From: a virus
Virus genome (UHGV): UHGV-0244975
Length of the DNA: 11,169 nt
Direction: 5' to 3' (one strand)
Part shown: positions 1 through 8,019 of the stretch, piece by piece
Layout: the number at the start of each line of letters is the position of its first letter
How positions within the stretch are numbered: position 1 is the first letter of the stretch
Position numbers and translations under genes: made by a program
Notes under the pieces: generated by a model
What the model was told of the DNA's origin: nothing
What the model saw: the letters and a program-made list of their open reading frames with translations, nothing else
The model's database searches: none

Positions 1-1
1 G

Positions 2-451
2 CTGGCCTGGGGAAAACAGTACGAGAACGACGCCAGAACTCTGTTTGAATTCACTTCCGGCGTGAATGTTACTGAATCCCCGATCATCTATCGCGACGAA
101 AGTATGCGCACCGCCTGCTCTCCCGATGGTTTATGCAGTGACGGCAATGGCCTTGAGCTGAAATGCCCGTTTACCTCCCGGGATTTCATGAAGTTCCGGC
201 TCGGTGGTTTCGAGGCCATAAAGTCGGCTTACATGGCCCAGGTGCAGTACAGCATGTGGGTGACGCGAAAAGATGCCTGGTACTTTGCCAACTATGACCC
301 GCGTATGAAGCGTGAAGGACTGCATTATGTCGTGGTTGAGCGGGATGAAAAGTACATGGCGAGTTTTGACGAGATGGTGCCGGAGTTCATCGAAAAAATG
401 GACGAGGCACTGGCTGAAATTGGTTTTGTATTTGGGGAGCAATGGCGATGA
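2..451 (+). CDS. exo: Lambda-type 5'-3' exonuclease (Red-alpha, YqaJ fold), C-terminal portion; 5' end lies left of the window
   Basis: The frame is open from the window edge ([23 protein letters not shown] precedes the first ATG at 62). The translation ends ...[19 protein letters not shown], which I recognise from memory as near-identical to the phage lambda Exo C-terminus. Stop TGA at 449-451. Confidence 0.85.
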
Positions 452-606
452 CGCATCCTCACGATAATATCCGGGTAGGTGCGATCACTTTCGTCTACTC
501 CGTTACAAAGCGAGGCTGGGTATTTCCCGGCCTTTCTGTTATCCAAAATCCACTGAAAGCACAGCGGCTGGCTGAGAAGATAAATAATAAACAGGAGGAT
601 ATATGA
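448..606 (+). CDS. Small hypothetical ORF (52 aa), possibly translationally coupled between exo and the DGQHR gene
   Basis: Its ATG at 448-450 overlaps the exo stop (ATGA) and its TGA at 604-606 overlaps the ATG of the next gene (ATATGA). Translation [52 protein letters not shown]. It is below the 60-aa cut-off of the ORF track and has no obvious SD of its own. Confidence 0.3.
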
Positions 607-1667
607 GTCAGGTTGGTAATCATTCATTCGAATTTCCGGCATCGCAAGGTGTACAGGGTGGTACTGTTACACTCTTCCTTACCATACCAGGAAGATCGCT
701 GGCTCGTTTCCTCGCTTCAGATAATTACGGCCATACACTGGAACGCTCTCAGCGAGAAATTAATCCAAATCGAGTACGAAAATTTTTAAATTATCTCACT
801 AACGCAGACTCAAGAAATGAGCCTTTTATCATTCCCCCTCTCGTAGGTAACTGTGATTCGAATATAGAATTTGTACCGTTTGGCAACACAAATGTTGGTA
901 TAGCCAGAATTCCCCTCGACGCCGAAATAAAACTTTTTGATGGTCAACATCGTGCAGCTGGCATTGAGATATTTTGCCGAAGTTCCCCATCAACGCTCAT
1001 GGTTCCCATGATGCTTACAATGAATCTGCCGCTAAAAACCCGGCAGCAGTTCTTTTCGGACATAAATAACAACGTTTCTAAGCCATCAGCGACCATCAAT
1101 ATGGCGTATAACGGCCGGGATGATATTGCTCAGGGAATGATATCCTTCCTGACCCAACATACTGTATTTGCCGATATAACCGATTTTGAACACAACGTAG
1201 TGCCATTAAAAAGTAATATGTGGGTGAGTTTCAAGGCACTCACTGATGCAACGTCAAAGTTCGCCAGGAACGGCAATCAACAACTTGAAATGGGATATAT
1301 AGAATCTGTCTGGGAGGCATGGATTACACTAACTCAGATTGACTCAATCCGACATGGTGTACACCACGCTACGTACAAGCGCGATTATATTCAGTTCCAT
1401 GGAGTAATGATTAACGCTTTCGGTTTTGCGGTTCAACAGATGATGGTTAATCATTCCATCGCAGAAATAACTTCTATGATCGAAAAACTATGTGCAACTA
1501 CCAGCTCTGCAGAAAGAGAGGATTTTTTTCTGATGGATAACTGGGCGGGGATCTGCACGAAAGCCAGCCAGGAAAAACTATCTGTTATTGCCAATGTGGC
1601 AGCGCAGAAAGCAGCAGCAAACAGACTGATACAAGCTTTTACCAAAGGAAGTCTGGAATTAACTTAA
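603..1667 (+). CDS. DndB-like DGQHR-domain protein (ParB/sulfiredoxin-fold), orphan
   Basis: 354-aa ORF with a strong SD (AGGAGG at 594-599) 4 nt before the ATG. The translation contains the exact signature ...AEIKLFDGQHRAAGIEIF..., the DGQHR motif that defines the DndB family. The gene is visibly AT-rich compared with flanking exo and int. Confidence 0.85.
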   Translation: MSQVGNHSFEFPASQGVQGGTVTLFLTIPGRSLARFLASDNYGHTLERSQREINPNRVRKFLNYLTNADSRNEPFIIPPLVGNCDSNIEFVPFGNTNVGIARIPLDAEIKLFDGQHRAAGIEIFCRSSPSTLMVPMMLTMNLPLKTRQQFFSDINNNVSKPSATINMAYNGRDDIAQGMISFLTQHTVFADITDFEHNVVPLKSNMWVSFKALTDATSKFARNGNQQLEMGYIESVWEAWITLTQIDSIRHGVHHATYKRDYIQFHGVMINAFGFAVQQMMVNHSIAEITSMIEKLCATTSSAEREDFFLMDNWAGICTKASQEKLSVIANVAAQKAAANRLIQAFTKGSLELT

Positions 1668-1820
1668 TGAATCAACATTGTCTCATATCAGCATGCTGTA
1701 CGGCGTCTTTAAGGAACGGTGAGCATGAAAAACAAAATCATCATGGAGCTACAGGCTCCTTTTTTATTGTTCGCATTCACCCTCAAGCGTATTAACCAAC
1801 AATTTAGGGATTAATGGAAG

Positions 1821-2039
1821 ATGGCAGACATCATTGATTCAGCATCAGAAATTGAAGAATTACAGCGCAACACAGCAATAAAAATGCACCGCCTGAACCA
1901 CCAGGCTATATCTGCCACTCATTGTTGTGAGTGTGGCGATCCGATAGATGAACTAAGACGTCTGGCCGTTCAGGGTTGTCGGACTTGTGCAAGTTGCCAG
2001 GAGGAGATCGAACTTAAGAACAAACAATGGGGATTGTGA
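1821..2039 (+). CDS. TraR/DksA-family C4-type zinc-finger protein
   Basis: 72 aa with two Cys pairs, C-C-E-C-G ... C-R-T-C-A-S-C, spaced as in TraR/DksA C4 zinc fingers, and a size typical of phage TraR-like proteins. Confidence 0.8.
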   Translation: MADIIDSASEIEELQRNTAIKMHRLNHQAISATHCCECGDPIDELRRLAVQGCRTCASCQEEIELKNKQWGL

Positions 2040-2086
2040 TGGCCTCAAAGCAGCAAATTTCAACATCGTCCAACTGAGGTGTAAAA

Positions 2087-2326
2087 ATGTTCAGAATCAT
2101 TTTTCCTAACACCTGGTACGTCGACCACCACGGCACTCCCTGCAAAATCCTGCGTTCTACCCACAACAAAGTTCACTACATCCGAAAAGGCAGAACATGT
2201 ATCGCCAGCATGTTCCGCTTTAATCATGACTTTGAACCTGTGAGTAAAGTGGAATCAGAGCGGATAGCCGAAGAGATCGATACAGCAGAACACATTAAGA
2301 AGTTACGTGCCATACGCAGGAAATAG
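2087..2326 (+). CDS. Hypothetical protein (79 aa)
   Basis: ORF in the same orientation as the surrounding operon, with GAGG 7-8 nt upstream of the ATG. No motif recognised. Confidence 0.55.
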   Translation: MFRIIFPNTWYVDHHGTPCKILRSTHNKVHYIRKGRTCIASMFRFNHDFEPVSKVESERIAEEIDTAEHIKKLRAIRRK

Positions 2327-2465
2327 AAAAATTGATAAATTCAATACTGCATTTCTCAGCATTAAATTTATCTCTATGACCAGTCAAGAGATGTACCTGC
2401 CATGAGCTTAATATCATGTCAGATATATCGGTCACAAACTCCCTCAGCAGCTAAGAGGAGGACAA

Positions 2466-2702
2466 ATGTCTCGACTAATCACTTTACAGGACTGGGCTAA
2501 AGAAGAATTTGGGGACTTAGCACCAAGTGAGCGAGTTCTGAAAAAATACGCGCAAGGGAAAATGATGGCCCCACCCGCTATAAAAGTTGGTCGCTACTGG
2601 ATGATTGACCGAAATTCCCGTTTTGTAGGAACGCTTGCAGAACCGCAACTCCCAATAAACGCAAACCCAAAACTCCAACGGATAATCGCTGATGGCTGCT
2701 AG
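2466..2702 (+). CDS. xis: Excisionase (Xis-type DNA-binding protein)
   Basis: 78 aa, preceded by a strong SD (AAGAGGAGG). The N-terminus MSRLITLQDWAKEEFG...IKVGRYWMIDRNSRF has the pattern of lambdoid excisionases. Its 3' end overlaps the int start by 11 nt, as xis-int pairs do. Confidence 0.8.
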   Translation: MSRLITLQDWAKEEFGDLAPSERVLKKYAQGKMMAPPAIKVGRYWMIDRNSRFVGTLAEPQLPINANPKLQRIIADGC

Positions 2703-3834
2703 ACCCCGATCTCACAAAATCTCTATACCCAATTTATATTGCAAATTAGATAAGCGAACCGGAAAGGTATATTGGCAATACAAACATCCACTATCCGGTC
2801 GTTTTCATAGCTTAGGAACTGATGAGAATGAAGCAAAACAAGTTGCTACTGAAGCAAATACCATTATTGCTGAACAACGTACCAGACAAATATTAAGCGT
2901 CAATGAGCGTCTGGAAAGAATGAAAGGCAGGCGCTCAGACATTACGGTGACAGAATGGCTTGATAAATATATTTCTATCCAGGAGGACAGGCTGCAACAT
3001 AATGAACTAAGACCCAACTCCTATCGGCAAAAAGGCAAACCCATTCGTCTTTTCCGTGAGCATTGTGGAATGCAACACCTCAAGGATATTACCGCACTTG
3101 ATATTGCCGAAATAATTGATGCTGTAAAGGCTGAAGGTCATAACAGGATGGCGCAAGTCGTGAGAATGGTGTTAATCGACGTCTTCAAAGAAGCACAACA
3201 CGCAGGACATGTTCCGCCAGGATTTAACCCAGCGCAGGCAACAAAACAACCGCGAAATCGAGTAAACCGCCAAAGATTATCACTGCCCGAATGGCAGGCA
3301 ATATTTGACAGCGTAAGCAGACGGCAGCCCTATTTAAAATGCGGGATGCTACTTGCTCTTGTCACTGGACAACGTTTAGGCGATATCTGCAATTTGAAAT
3401 TCTCTGATATCTGGGACGACATGTTGCACATTACTCAGGAAAAAACCGGTTCAAAACTTGCTATTCCGCTTAACCTGAAATGCGATGCTCTGAATATTAC
3501 CCTTCGTGAAGTTATATCTCAGTGCAGGGATGCTGTTGTTAGTAAATATCTGGTCCATTACCGTCACACAACCTCTCAAGCAAACAGAGGGGACCAGGTT
3601 TCTGCGAATACTCTGACAACAGCTTTTAAAAAGGCCAGGGAAAAATGTGGCATAAAATGGGAGCAAGGAACCGCGCCCACATTTCATGAGCAGCGATCTC
3701 TGTCAGAACGGTTATATCGGGAACAGGGTCTGGATACGCAAAAGTTGTTAGGTCATAAATCCAGAAAAATGACCGACCGATACAATGATGATCGTGGTAA
3801 AGACTGGGTTATCGTAGATATGAAAACAGCATAG
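2692..3834 (+). CDS. int: Tyrosine site-specific integrase, lambda Int family
   Basis: 380 aa. The N-terminus MAARPRSHKISIPNLYCKLDKRTGK parallels the lambda Int arm-binding domain, and the C-terminus carries the catalytic signature ...TFHEQRSLSERLY...LLGHKSRKMTDRYNDDRG (His-x-x-Arg ... Tyr). It reads toward the adjacent icd fragment. Confidence 0.92.
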   Translation: MAARPRSHKISIPNLYCKLDKRTGKVYWQYKHPLSGRFHSLGTDENEAKQVATEANTIIAEQRTRQILSVNERLERMKGRRSDITVTEWLDKYISIQEDRLQHNELRPNSYRQKGKPIRLFREHCGMQHLKDITALDIAEIIDAVKAEGHNRMAQVVRMVLIDVFKEAQHAGHVPPGFNPAQATKQPRNRVNRQRLSLPEWQAIFDSVSRRQPYLKCGMLLALVTGQRLGDICNLKFSDIWDDMLHITQEKTGSKLAIPLNLKCDALNITLREVISQCRDAVVSKYLVHYRHTTSQANRGDQVSANTLTTAFKKAREKCGIKWEQGTAPTFHEQRSLSERLYREQGLDTQKLLGHKSRKMTDRYNDDRGKDWVIVDMKTA

Positions 3835-3844
3835 AAAATAGCCA

Positions 3845-3881
3845 GTTTTGGGGAAGGGTTTTGGGGAAAGTTTTGGGGAAG
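3845..3881. repeat. Three tandem direct repeats GTTTTGGGGAA(A)G just 3' of int; candidate arm-type Int-binding sites (P' arm)
   Basis: Directly visible: gttttggggaag / gttttggggaaag / gttttggggaag, head to tail, 11 nt after the int stop. Lambda attP has three tandem arm-type Int sites in the equivalent position. The binding function is inferred. Confidence 0.6.
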
Positions 3882-3901
3882 ATTTTACATCATCATAAAA
3901 C

Positions 3902-3924
3902 AACGGGCGTGTTATACGCCCGTT
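3902..3924. terminator. GC-rich hairpin, candidate bidirectional rho-independent terminator (icd fragment on -, int on +)
   Basis: Perfect 9-bp inverted repeat AACGGGCGT-gttat-ACGCCCGTT. On the - strand it is followed by GTTTTAT, 24 nt after the icd-fragment stop; on the + strand by acagTTTTT. Confidence 0.5.
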
Positions 3925-3947
3925 ACAGTTTTTAACGCATGCAGAAA

Positions 3948-4112
3948 TTACATGTTCTTGATGATCGCGTCACCAAACTCTGAACATTTCAGCAGTTTAG
4001 CGCCTTCCATCAGACGTTCGAAGTCATAGGTTACAGTCTTCGCGTTGATCGCGCCTTCCATACCTTTAACAATCAGGTCTGCGGCTTCAGTCCAACCCAT
4101 ATGGCGCAGCAT
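3948..4112 (-). pseudogene. icd: Promoterless 3'-terminal fragment of the isocitrate dehydrogenase gene (54 codons plus stop): phage-borne att-associated icd segment
   Basis: The - strand translates to [54 protein letters not shown], matching the Icd C-terminus as I recall it. Homology stops abruptly at 4112 (next upstream codons are Leu then a stop), so no upstream icd body is present. Confidence 0.85.
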
Positions 4113-4345
4113 TAGTTAGATGACTAAATCGTAACTATTTGACATAGCAACATAATTTTACTAATTTGCATATAACTCATTAGCTCTTAGCATTTCTATA
4201 ACTCATTGATTATAAACATGTGTTTTTGAGTTTTGATAACCATTTTTAGCATAAAAATAGCAGTTAACATTTGCAGAAGTTAAGATCAGAGAAAATTTTT
4301 ATCCTGTAGGGTATTACGTCTTAAATGTGACTTTAATAAACAATT

Positions 4346-5179
4346 TTATTTCTGTAATCGGTTTATATTAACGTAAAGCATCTCGATTAGTTCTTTTGCA
4401 TTTTTACTATAGTGCAATTCTCTATGACAATTCGGACAAAGGGCAACACAGTTATCTGTTGTATCAGCACCACCTGAAAACAGGGGAATTACATGATGCA
4501 CTTCCAAATATGGGTTTCCATCATTTAAATAAAACGGAGCATTTTTACCACAGTTTTCACATATACCTTTACTTTGCTGTAAAATCCAAGCTTTTACCAT
4601 CGGGTCTCGGACATAAACTTTTTGTAGTCTTTCTACCTCAACTGGTTTCCTGGAGCCATCGGGTTGACTCAACGTTTTCTTAATTAATTTACTAACCCTC
4701 ATATTCAGAAGCGATTCATCATCTGTAGGCTGTGAAAGCTCTGATAGTTCTCCACGTATTATAGACGCCCAAAAACTGTCACTATAAATACCTGGAACAT
4801 TTATCAATATTCGTTTCGTTCTATTGCCGGAAGGAATTTCCTTTCTCCCCGTATGACTAAAATAAGCCTGATAACCACACATCTTCAAGCGTATATCGCG
4901 GGGGCTATTACCAATCAAAGTAAAATATTCACCAGGATGGACTTTTCTTTCATCCAAAGAATGCATATGTTTTCTGACTGATGATGACGCCAGATATACT
5001 ACGACTTGGGATACACCAGAATCAACCAACCGTTCAATGATATAATCAAGAGCGATATTGTAATCTTTGTTTCTGTCACCCGGCCCCCACGACTCAAGGA
5101 TTAGACCATAAACACCATCCTCTTCACCTATCAAACACTCTGCTTTCAGTTCAATTCCATTATTATCAAAAACATGCAT
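4346..5179 (-). CDS. mcrA: McrA, HNH endonuclease (Type IV modification-dependent restriction)
   Basis: 277 aa. The C-terminal HNH motif is explicit: CENCGKNAPFYLNDGNPYLEVHHVIPLFSGGADTTDNCVALCPNCHRELHY. The overall sequence is recognised from memory as McrA of e14. The gene is very AT-rich. Confidence 0.9.
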   Translation of the reverse strand: MHVFDNNGIELKAECLIGEEDGVYGLILESWGPGDRNKDYNIALDYIIERLVDSGVSQVVVYLASSSVRKHMHSLDERKVHPGEYFTLIGNSPRDIRLKMCGYQAYFSHTGRKEIPSGNRTKRILINVPGIYSDSFWASIIRGELSELSQPTDDESLLNMRVSKLIKKTLSQPDGSRKPVEVERLQKVYVRDPMVKAWILQQSKGICENCGKNAPFYLNDGNPYLEVHHVIPLFSGGADTTDNCVALCPNCHRELHYSKNAKELIEMLYVNINRLQK

Positions 5180-5285: not shown

Positions 5286-5840
5286 TTATTTATCCCCTGC
5301 AGGAAACCTCTTATACAAAGTTGACACACCAACATCATAGATAATCGCCACCTTCTGGCGAGGAACTCCTGATGCAATTAATCGTCCGGCCTGTGCCCAT
5401 TGTTCTGGTGTAAGTTTGGGACGACGTCCACCAATTCGTCCCTGTGCGCGAGCAGCTTCCAGTCCAGCTTTTGTTCTTTCAACAATCAGTTCACGCTCCA
5501 TTTCAGCCAGGGCACCCATCACATGAAAGAAAAAGCGCCCCATTGGGGTACTGGTATCAATTGAATCCGTCAGACTACGAAAGTTGATGCCTCGTTCGCG
5601 CAACTCCTCCACCAGCACGACAAGATGCCGCATACTGCGCCCCAGCCGGTCCAGTTTCCAGACCACCAGCGTGTCACCTGCCGATAATGTCCTGAGCAGT
5701 TTTTTCAGTCCCGGCCTTTCGGACTTTGTACCGCTTATCTTGTCTTCAAAAATCAGCTCGCATCCTGCACAGTTCAGCGCATTACGTTGTAGATCTGTGT
5801 TCTGGTCATTTGTTGACACACGTACATAGCCAATAAGCAT
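5286..5840 (-). CDS. pin: Serine DNA invertase, Pin (Hin/Gin/Cin family)
   Basis: N-terminus MLIGYVRVSTNDQNTDLQ with the catalytic Ser in the YVRVSTNDQ resolvase motif, and a C-terminal HTH. Start chosen at the internal ATG 5838-5840, preceded by AGGGAG, giving 184 aa; the 196-aa track ORF starts 12 codons upstream. Confidence 0.9.
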   Translation of the reverse strand: MLIGYVRVSTNDQNTDLQRNALNCAGCELIFEDKISGTKSERPGLKKLLRTLSAGDTLVVWKLDRLGRSMRHLVVLVEELRERGINFRSLTDSIDTSTPMGRFFFHVMGALAEMERELIVERTKAGLEAARAQGRIGGRRPKLTPEQWAQAGRLIASGVPRQKVAIIYDVGVSTLYKRFPAGDK

Positions 5841-5866
5841 GGTAGCTCTCCCTGACAAAAGCAGGA

Positions 5867-6265
5867 ATGATGCCATTTGCTCGTTATTTCTGCATTTTCA
5901 TAAACGTTGGTTTAGGAGAAGCGGCGAAAAGGGATGTGGGCACAGGAGATAATCAGATACCGGATATGGGAGCATTCGCTTCTGGTTCGGGATGGTTCAG
6001 GCTACCAGGTGGATATATTGTTCAGTTTGGCACTTTTTCAGGAAACACGACCCGCTTTATCAGTGGACACTTCCCTATACCATTCCCTAATCAGCCGATG
6101 GTTTCAGTCAGTGTTATGTCTGATGCCGTTCAGTCAGACCCGTCGAATCCTGCCCCGCAGGTTTTGTCTGTAAATTTTGAACATATCAGTAATTCAGCGT
6201 GGCGTGTGGCAACCAGTGATATCTCACAGCAATACAGATTCAGTTATATTTCGATAGGACGGTAG
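5867..6265 (+). CDS. Alternative tail-fibre C-terminal variable segment, silent in this orientation
   Basis: The frame opens at 5846 just inside the invertible segment and has no credible own start. It encodes NVGLGE at the crossover site, matching ENLGLGE of the expressed fibre, and is followed immediately by a tfa gene. Confidence 0.7.
   Translation: MMPFARYFCIFINVGLGEAAKRDVGTGDNQIPDMGAFASGSGWFRLPGGYIVQFGTFSGNTTRFISGHFPIPFPNQPMVSVSVMSDAVQSDPSNPAPQVLSVNFEHISNSAWRVATSDISQQYRFSYISIGR
5895..5920. repeat. Inversion crossover site, hix/gix/pix-like 26-bp site proximal to pin
   Basis: ttttcataaacgTTggtttaggagaa. Its reverse complement TTCTCCTAAACC-AA-CGTTTATGAAAA resembles the hix/gix half-site pattern and is an inverted copy of the site at 7717-7742. 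Confidence 0.7.
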
Positions 6266-6267
6266 AA

Positions 6268-6708
6268 ATGCAGAAATATATTTTCAGTGCCGATAAAAAT
6301 GCGTTTTTCCCTGTGGAGCTTAAAATCGCTTATCAGGAATCCGGCGAATGGCCCGATGATGGAATCGAAATTGACGACACTGTTGCTGCCGAATTTATGA
6401 AGGAAGCACCAGAAGGAAAATACAGAGGTGTCATCGACGGAATGCCTGCATGGATTGATATTCCACCGCCAACTCATGAGGAACAAATTGCCGCAGCCGA
6501 ACTGAAAAAGCAGCAATTGATTAATCAGGTCAACGAATACATAAACAGTAAGCAATGGCCTGGTAAAGCGGCGATTGGTCGCCTGAAAGGTGAGGAACTG
6601 GTGCAATATAATTTGTGGCTGGATTATCTGGACGCACTGGAACTGGTCGATACTTCCGGTGCGCCAGATATTGAATGGCCTACGCCTCCGGCAGTTCAGG
6701 CCAGATGA
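6268..6708 (+). CDS. Tail fibre assembly protein (chaperone for the silent fibre variant)
   Basis: 146 aa. The C-terminus ...[24 protein letters not shown] resembles the conserved Tfa C-terminal region. It starts 3 nt after the silent fibre segment stop. Confidence 0.8.
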   Translation: MQKYIFSADKNAFFPVELKIAYQESGEWPDDGIEIDDTVAAEFMKEAPEGKYRGVIDGMPAWIDIPPPTHEEQIAAAELKKQQLINQVNEYINSKQWPGKAAIGRLKGEELVQYNLWLDYLDALELVDTSGAPDIEWPTPPAVQAR

Positions 6709-7276
6709 CATCCGGTGCGGTGCTGGTATCTGTTGCCGTCACCGCGTCAATATAATCCAGCACAGCGTTAAGTCGGGTGTTTTCTGGCTGCGTCAGCTTC
6801 CGCCCGGCCTGTAATTTCAGTTGAATCAGACTGATGGAAGCCATTGCAGCATCAATCAGCGACTGGCGCTGTGCTTCTGCCGCTTCTACTGCGGCGCTAT
6901 GCTGTGCCTCGGTATCCGTCACCCATTTCTCACCATCCCATTTATCGTATGGCGTTAACGGTGAAAGCGTGACATAACCGTCTTTGATGGCACCGATATA
7001 ATCCACTGTAACAGCTGCACCATTTTCTGTTGAGTAAACAGTCTCATTGCGATGGTCTTCTTCATGGCTCCATCCCTTACCCGTAAATACTGCCACTTTT
7101 CCCGGAATGTTTTCGCCCGGGTCAATACCAGTGGAACAGGCGGGCATACTTACACCAGTATTAATATATTCATCAGACCAGCCCGTATATTCATACGTTA
7201 CTGCATCATAATAAAAACAACGCATATCGCCCGGCACTGTAGCCAGTCCATTTTCATCAAAAATTGGGGTCATCAT
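6680..7276 (-). CDS. Tail fibre assembly protein (for the currently expressed fibre)
   Basis: 198 aa. The C-terminus ...[24 protein letters not shown] parallels the other Tfa. Its start overlaps the tail-fibre stop (coupled). Confidence 0.8.
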
Positions 7277-8019
7277 TTAGCCCTCACCAGAAAGTTAAAT
7301 GCAATATTTCGCGGTCTGACAGCAACAAAATTAACACCATCTCCTACTGAGTTACTGGTGTACTGAAATCGAGAGAAACCTGGCTGGTGTGCTGATATTC
7401 CATCGTAATCAGCAATCGCATGGCCGGACCCTTCTGGATAATTACCGCCAAATTGCGATAAAGATGTTGCTGCCTGCCAGCTTAATAATGCTCGCCCACT
7501 GTCCGCCCCTCGCCCATCATCCCAGATACGAATGAAATCACCGCGGGCTTCAGGTAATACCAGCGAAGGAAACACTTTTGCCAGCACAGGGTAATCAGTG
7601 GCAGAGAATTTCGCGCCGTTGAACTTCAAAAACACCATGCCGGACCAGCTTTCGATTACGGTATCTGGCATTGCGGCGGACGGCCAGAAGAACGGAACGC
7701 CAATAGCTGGAGCACCTTCTCCCAAACCAAGGTTTTCGAGAGCCGTTTTCACCGTGCCATCCGATTTGATATCGCCAAACGGATTCTTGCGGCTTAACAG
7801 CAGCGCACGAAGCGCGGTAAGCAACTGGTCGTGCCGCGCCTTCTCCAGACTGGCACCGGAGGCCTCCACCACGCTGCAAAGCTCCTCCTGCAACATGTCA
7901 AAGTAGTCATCATCCAGATCGGTGGCAGGCGTACCAGTCTGGGGATTACCACGGGTAAAACCGTTCTTACCCGCGCCGAACTTATCCTTCTGCGCGGTTT
8001 TCGTGTCTATACGATGCAT
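7273..8019 (-). CDS. Tail fibre protein (constant N-terminal part joined to the currently expressed variable C-terminal part)
   Basis: 248 aa. The crossover site lies at codons 95-100; the C-terminal portion is inside the invertible segment. Confidence 0.85.
7717..7742. repeat. Inversion crossover site, hix/gix/pix-like 26-bp site inside the tail-fibre gene at the constant/variable boundary
   Basis: TTCTCCCAAACC-AA-GGTTTTCGAGAG, in inverted orientation relative to 5895-5920. It falls on the codons for ENLGLGE in the tail fibre, and the silent segment encodes the matching NVGLGE at the other site. Confidence 0.7.

Follow-up and report, generated by a model that had tools for sequence, protein, structure and literature searches.

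A mixed e14-type and phage-21-type attachment junction at icd, probably within a tandem pair of Escherichia coli prophages

Genes and attachment-site features around the icd fragment

The window, i.e., the whole stretch of 11,169 nt that was analyzed, holds a fragment of the isocitrate dehydrogenase gene (icd′) between an integrase-excisionase module on one side and mcrA and pin on the other (Table 1). The sequence-only reading that preceded this analysis had described a 54-codon icd 3′ fragment on the minus strand, with int on its 3′ side and mcrA on its 5′ side. The fragment was confirmed as an open reading frame, and the positions of the neighboring reading frames bear out the order: int ends 113 nt past the 3′ end of icd′, and mcrA ends 233 nt past its 5′ end. 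The 165 nt of icd′ share 92 to 100% identity with E. coli icd genes and icdC pseudogenes at their 3′ ends, with a perfect match (165/165) to the last 165 nt of the full 416-codon icd adjoining the same prophage in three other loci (L014, L015, and L017) and 92 to 95% identity to host-derived copies. The abrupt end of icd homology claimed for position 4112 also stood, as alignments with the full-length icd of L014, K-12, and 82.0311 break exactly at 4112/4113. The 233 nt 5′ of icd′ are AT rich, the G+C content being 31% in 4051 to 4350 versus 42 to 60% elsewhere in the window.

Table 1. Positions of genes and attachment-site features in the window
Feature	Coordinates	Strand	Basis
xis, excisionase of a phage-21-type lambdoid prophage	2466..2702	+	78-aa ORF; identical gene in L007 has PF07825 (Exc); phage 21 (OL657228.1) has its annotated excisionase at this position
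int, tyrosine integrase of phage-21 type	2692..3834	+	380 aa; PF09003 and PF00589
Three arm-type repeats of phage-21 type (P′ arm), TTCCCCAAAA x3, putatively Int binding	3846..3880	-	Direct repeats, spacing of 13/12 nt; annotated attP subsites in phage 21
216-nt block: icd 3′ end plus 51 nt with terminator, common to attL-type and attR-type loci	3897..4112	-	21-only loci match 1-4112, e14-only loci 3895/3897-11169
Bidirectional intrinsic terminator, phage copy of the icd terminator, also ending int	3900..3926	.	Terminator-like hairpins on both strands; annotated terminator in phage 21
icd′, 54-codon 3′ fragment of the isocitrate dehydrogenase gene, replacement copy of the 21-type phage	3948..4112	-	54-aa ORF; identity to icd 3′ ends
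AT-rich P arm of e14 type, forming the right end of the e14-like prophage	4113..4345	-	233/233 to e14-only attR (L003/L004)
e14-type arm motif TTATCAAAA in the P arm	4231..4239	-	At -126 from the first icd′ base
mcrA, cargo gene for an HNH endonuclease specific for 5-methylcytosine, right end of the e14-like prophage	4346..5179	-	277-aa ORF; PF01844 (HNH); mcrA in the annotation of K-12 and of many genomes
pin, serine DNA invertase of the e14-like prophage	5286..5876	-	ORF; PF00239/PF02796; annotated pinE in K-12

The 216-nt block is the sole stretch common to 21-type and e14-type loci, and this comparison places the recombination core within it, probably toward its 4112 end. The SNP patterns of attL, junction, and attR copies gave no firm position for the crossover inside the block, because host and phage icd′ copies are mosaic; e.g., a C at +18 is shared by the phage 21 attP, one host-derived copy, and one junction. 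The terminator within the block contains a perfect 9-nt inverted repeat (3902-3910/3916-3924). No RNA family was found in the window at the Rfam gathering threshold, and a promoter scan of 3700 to 4500 gave nothing above chance. The 54-aa icd′ peptide was considered as a clue to the origin of the DNA and dropped as uninformative, since an exact look-up returned a common E. coli Icd C terminus that is listed in 7,109 blocks of the collection.

The int side of the junction is of phage 21 type. The integrase is identical to that of phage 21 at 375 of 380 residues (99%) and only 60% identical to IntE of e14. The arm motif TTCCCCAAAA has three exact matches in the window versus 0.05 expected, and in the phage 21 record the repeats are annotated as attP subsites P1P2P3, with the consensus YYTTCCCCAAAA, followed by a terminator and an icd pseudogene. 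Counted from the first icd′ base, the phage 21 attP carries TTCCCCAAAA at -127 in the P arm and at +233, +245, and +258 in the P′ arm; the three window repeats occupy the same P′ positions. The segment holding these repeats (3835 to 3896) is identical to L014 and to the phage 21 attP (62/62) and unrelated to e14, and the following segment with the terminator (3897 to 3947) is identical to L014 (51/51) and 86 to 90% identical to e14-type loci. The P′ half of a 21-type attP is present: a 21-type int lies next to three YYTTCCCCAAAA repeats, which are followed by the icd terminator, and the icd homology extends over ∼210 nt. The corresponding P arm was sought in 4113 to 4412, where TTCCCCAAAA was not found with up to one mismatch allowed.

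The mcrA side is of e14 type. The P arm at 4113 to 4345 has 98.3% identity to that of the K-12 e14 attR and is unrelated to the P arm of phage 21 (54% in a forced global alignment). Its motif, TTATCAAAA, stands where the phage 21 attP has TTCCCCAAAA, i.e., at -126 versus -127; it has two matches in the whole window, with 0.2 expected, and K-12 and 82.0311 each have three copies of it in the e14 P′ arm (+234/235, +245/246, and +258/259). TTATCAAAA is a putative IntE-binding site. The reference for e14 attachment sequences was attR plus attL of K-12, where the motif stands at -126 and at +235, +246, and +259; the e14-type ends in 82.0311 depart from these positions by ≤1 nt. The P half of an e14-type attP is present as a P arm adjoining mcrA and bearing TTATCAAAA. 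For the P′ half, TTATCAAAA was not found downstream of icd′ in the window, and the integrase there shares only the 60% identity with IntE given above. Phage vB_EcoM-689R6, tried as a positive control for an intact e14-type attP, was dropped, its record being partial and rearranged.

Further features of both arms were observed. The e14-type P arm contains TATAACTCATT, an exact direct repeat of 11 nt, at 4171 to 4181 and 4197 to 4207 (26 nt apart), which might be a site for an accessory protein of the Xis or IHF type. The cargo slot at the e14-type att arm varies among loci: the equivalent of window positions 4346 to 5179 in L029-L034, L036, L037, L026, L001, and L002 was compared, and the slot holds mcrA (as in the window), a GmrSD/DUF262 nuclease gene, or a LEM-3-like GIY-YIG gene with an acyltransferase gene. 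It looks like a swap site for nuclease or defense-type genes at the prophage end. Farther into the e14-like arm, a 1.8-kb tail fiber segment (5902 to 7735) is inverted in L006, L010, and L011, in assemblies otherwise >99.9% identical, and its ends (about 5905-5925 and 7712-7735) are imperfect inverted repeats, AAACGTTGGTTTAGGAGAAG and AAACCTTGGTTTGGGAGAAG. The segment corresponds to the P segment of e14, which Pin inverts, and is seen here in either orientation. In the 21-type left arm, a DndB-like ORF of 354 aa (PF14072; 603 to 1667, plus strand) lies between the exo/DUF1317 genes and a TraR-like gene. It is a cargo gene in the recombination arm and is absent from 82.0311 and PEC131, whose matches skip window positions 606 to 1685 and 599 to 2082, respectively.

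The two arms at single-prophage and tandem loci

Comparison loci were fetched by exact protein look-ups and fell into three kinds. Loci with the 21-type arm alone (L014, L015, and L017) match window positions 1 to 4112 at 99.8 to 99.95% and continue into a full 416-aa icd, rluE, nudJ, mnmA, and, beyond these, phoPQ, as a simple attL. Loci with the e14-like arm alone (L003 and L004) match 3895/3897 to 11169 at 99.5 to 99.8% and continue into host ymgL, ycgX, bluR, and onward to minE, as a simple attR of the kind present in K-12. Loci with both arms, i.e., the source contig and its relatives, match the whole window and continue as the window does. The window itself is neither a simple attL nor a simple attR at icd, as the sequence-only reading had recognized. 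The icd body (codons 1 to 362) is not continuous with the 3′ fragment, and host DNA (iraM/ymgL/ycgX) is absent downstream of the fragment, where 21-type arm repeats and int are found instead.

Two of the single-prophage loci, L003 and L017, are separate contigs of one assembly (GCA_018428085.1), in which the 21-type int adjoins full-length icd and the e14-type mcrA-icd′ end adjoins host ymgL. With the two contigs not joined, this suggests a tandem in the opposite order (icd, 21-like, e14-like).

Phage 21, for which attP and attL are described (OL657228.1; Wang et al. 1997 J Bacteriol 179:5705, as cited in PMC12803456 and PMC3603311), shares with the window the integrase (99%), the P′ arm (100%), the three identical TTCCCCAAAA repeats, and the positions of the terminator and the 165-nt icd′, with identities of 93.3% for icd′ and 86.3% for the 51 nt with the terminator. 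It differs on the 5′ side of icd′, where the window has an e14-type P arm rather than the 21-type P arm of attP or the icd body of a simple attL. The e14 attR of K-12 (pinE-mcrA-icdC; Hill, Gray & Brody 1989, as cited in PMC13626634) shares mcrA, pin, the 233-nt P arm, and TTATCAAAA at its place, followed by an icd 3′ fragment. Unlike K-12, the window has the 21-type P′ arm and int downstream instead of host iraM/ymgL, its fragment is the 21-type copy rather than the displaced host copy, and its e14-like element keeps full baseplate and tail genes, whereas e14 of K-12 is a remnant.

In phage lambda, Int bridges arm-type sites to core sites in attP, attL, and attR. The arrangement at icd is similar in having arm-type repeats on either side of a core and one arm per prophage end, and it is different in that ∼216 nt of gene-restoring icd sequence lies between the core and the P′ repeats. 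Laboratory K-12(21) lysogens in which phage 21 adjoins e14 were reportedly studied by Wang et al. in 1997.

Several lines of evidence bear on whether the junction belongs to a chromosome. The window is 100% identical to about 168.4 to 179.6 kb of AATPDW010000001.1 (GCA_013041555.1), a contig of 456,347 bp, which is far larger than a phage and therefore places the junction in a chromosome. Within this contig, the junction falls at about 175.3 to 175.8 kb. The junction recurs at 99.8 to 100% in further draft assemblies and one metagenome contig, and in two further assemblies the contigs, of 190 and 466 kb, run on for 174 and 450 kb on the e14-like side. Of 5,426 complete E. coli genomes, 4 had an icd fragment with both arms around it.

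The sequence-only reading had offered two explanations for the absence of a simple attL or attR, an intact attP or a tandem prophage junction, and the first of these fared poorly. An intact attP would belong to one complete phage, be it a free or excised genome or a phage contig, with e14-like tail genes and a lambdoid exo-xis-int arm together in a mosaic like SfI. The succession of tail fibers, cargo, att, int, xis, and Red genes is indeed the normal order across attP in SfV/SfI-type mosaic phages (PMC3636060), and SfI matches both ends of the window (42% coverage). The window nevertheless lies inside the 456-kb contig, and its arms are mismatched (e14-type P and 21-type P′), whereas the actual attP of phage 21 bears the 21 motif in either arm. 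Because the arms belong to different integrases, the site matches the attP of neither phage. Further, the two arms were contiguous in 0 of 50,697 phage records, among which the best coverages were 59% and 47% with one arm each. In closed genomes, the two sides lead into two separate prophages, each complete with a set of packaging, head, tail, and lysis genes. An intact attP is thus extremely improbable. The tandem explanation gained support from the large contig, from the two phages whose arms are each found alone at icd, and from the layout in complete genomes.

That layout is seen in full in 82.0311. From phoP, the order runs through rluE to full-length icd, cargo, intE, xisE, and a complete e14-like prophage with regulators, Q, lysis genes, a P27-type terminase, an HK97-type head, a Mu-like tail, tail fibers, pin, and a truncated mcrA. 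These are followed by icd′, int, and xis, then exo, bet, and gam, then cI, then O and P, and then Q, lysis genes, a lambda-type terminase, head, tail, and J. After J come sitABCD, a further icd′, ycgX, and bluR, with minE beyond. Its three att sites carry the arm motifs that a tandem layout predicts: three e14-type motifs after full icd, mixed e14 and 21 motifs at the junction, and a 21-type P-arm motif before the last fragment. The order in PEC131 is the same with other cargo genes, and H22 and CP057347.1 are further variants of the layout, again with other cargo genes; the tandem in the closed genome CP057347.1 was found through the icd′ peptide look-up and lies outside the annotated collection. 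Both outer att sites, one formed by full icd next to a second integrase and the other by a further icd fragment, are present in 82.0311 and PEC131. A feature particular to PEC131 (L039, 20705 to 20914) is a short integrase pseudogene with extra ORFs between intE and full icd; the record has four icd-3′-like places, and the pseudogene is possibly the relic of a third element at the icd hotspot.

The same genomes bear on whether the junction was created in silico, the 216-nt icd repeat having led a short-read assembler to mis-join a 21-type attL to an e14-type attR. In favor of this, the assembly of origin is a draft, and the repeat is short, with three copies per tandem lysogen. Against a misassembly, the join occurs in at least eight independent assemblies, including 82.0311 and CP057347.1 (closed), PEC131 and H22 (chromosome level), and the metagenome contig, and the repeat copies differ by 2 to 8%, enough for assemblers to separate them. 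We give this explanation next to no weight.

It is also conceivable that the junction is a fossil, i.e., part of a single recombinant prophage left when an older tandem lost its outer att sites or large parts of its sequence, and dead as attR or attL. Decay is common at the locus: in H22, int is interrupted by an internal stop and a deletion extends from lysis genes to J, mcrA of 82.0311 is truncated, and e14 of K-12 is itself a remnant. However, int, xis, mcrA, and pin of the window are full-length ORFs, the arm repeats are identical to those of phage 21, and both arms run on intact in the source contig, through O and P on the 21-like side and through the tape-measure gene on the e14-like side. 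Such a fossil, which we consider very unlikely, would moreover be a later state of the same tandem junction and not a different origin.

Past the left end of the window, the source contig (L018, 1 to 3610) carries an inverse autotransporter gene that is also found in E. coli H22 (L026, 9306 to 13169). The gene, which has ∼1,290 to 1,300 codons and is invasin/intimin-like (IAT_beta, Big_1, and Invasin_D3), is flanked within the 21-like prophage by replication gene P and the nin region, and it may be adhesin cargo.

Probable tandem integration at icd and its predicted consequences

icd is an established prophage hotspot, and integration there duplicates its 3′ end (PMC3603311, PMC10111431, and PMC12803456, which cite Wang et al. 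1997 and Hill et al. 1989). The gene stays intact in the process, its displaced 3′ fragment ending up at the opposite end (PMC3603311, PMC12803456, and PMC13626634, which cite Hill et al. 1989 and Wang et al. 1997). Tandem arrays of prophages or islands sharing an att site have three related att sites per pair and are resolved by TIGER/Islander (PMC10111431). As in such arrays, two elements with different integrases share one target, and the internal site has one arm of each, with complementary arms at the outer sites (82.0311). Nothing essential sets the window apart; it is a natural case that joins a complete e14-like myovirus to a 21-like lambdoid with extra cargo (the DndB-like gene and the inverse autotransporter).

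We conclude that 3835 to 4345 is very probably the internal junction of two different prophages integrated in tandem at the icd hotspot of an E. coli chromosome. As read from its sequence, the junction would consist of the attR (P arm and core) of an e14/SfV-like myovirus and the attL (core, icd′, P′ arm, and int) of a phage-21-type lambdoid. The complete layout proposed for the source contig rests on the 456,347-bp contig, with genes seen ±10 kb around the window, and on related closed genomes, which are 93 to 95% identical to the window across the junction. The sequence-only reading had also entertained a complete e14 with an exo/Red arm, and this part has to be abandoned. The complete e14-like prophages of 82.0311 and PEC131 are without exo, bet, and gam, and therefore the Red arm of the window (exo-xis-int) belongs to the 21-like prophage, as the left arm of a 21-like lambdoid.

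The tandem could have formed as follows. Both phage types carry in attP a copy of the icd 3′ end of ∼216 bp with its terminator, and recombination at the 5′ edge of this copy would swap out the host icd 3′ end, so that icd stays intact and a core-containing icd fragment is left at the opposite prophage end. As both prophage ends would keep a core, a second icd-specific phage could use either copy. Two routes can be envisaged, entry of a 21-like phage into the e14 attR or of an e14-like phage into icd of a 21 lysogen, and they would give an identical product. Either order of integration is compatible with the sequence, which does not tell the two apart. The predicted product comprises (i) icd(5′) joined to the e14 3′ copy, intE, and the e14-like prophage through to pin and mcrA; (ii) the junction, with e14 P arm, core, 21 icd′, terminator, and 21 P′ arm; and (iii) int21, xis, exo, and the 21-like prophage, ending in 21 P arm, core, and host icd′, followed by host DNA.

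Several consequences for the two elements can be predicted from the lambda paradigm and from published work on 21/e14 specificity. In the lambda paradigm, attR needs only a P arm and attL only a P′ arm. Each prophage would probably still be able to excise alone with its own Int and Xis, because the junction offers the e14 P arm to IntE/XisE and the 21 P′ arm to Int21. Conversely, the junction would not be a functional attP for either integrase, and it is expected to perform poorly as a hybrid attP or in coexcision of both elements. Cross-excision between adjacent e14 and 21 prophages is said to have been poor in the 1997 work of Wang et al. The icd′ at the junction is probably a silent by-product.

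A more speculative consequence, and one that we think improbable, is that the hybrid junction is a natural starting point for SfI-type mosaic phages or that the tandem is mobilized or reshuffled as a unit. In mosaics of the SfI type, an att/int module would connect e14-like structural genes with a lambda-like early region; such phages could arise by homologous recombination between the Q/lysis regions of the two prophages or by low-level cross-reaction of Int21 or IntE on mismatched arms.

A tandem prophage junction at icd is an already known and ordinary arrangement, and the finding itself is of little importance. It corrects the impression of a complete e14 phage with a Red recombination arm, and it documents natural double occupancy of the icd hotspot, with this exact arm pair in only the 4 closed E. 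coli genomes counted above. Where an attP-like order is met in a chromosome, a tandem junction and a true attP can be sorted by whether the arm repeats on both sides fit the same integrase. Tandem strains are possible material for studies of integrase specificity and of independent excision.
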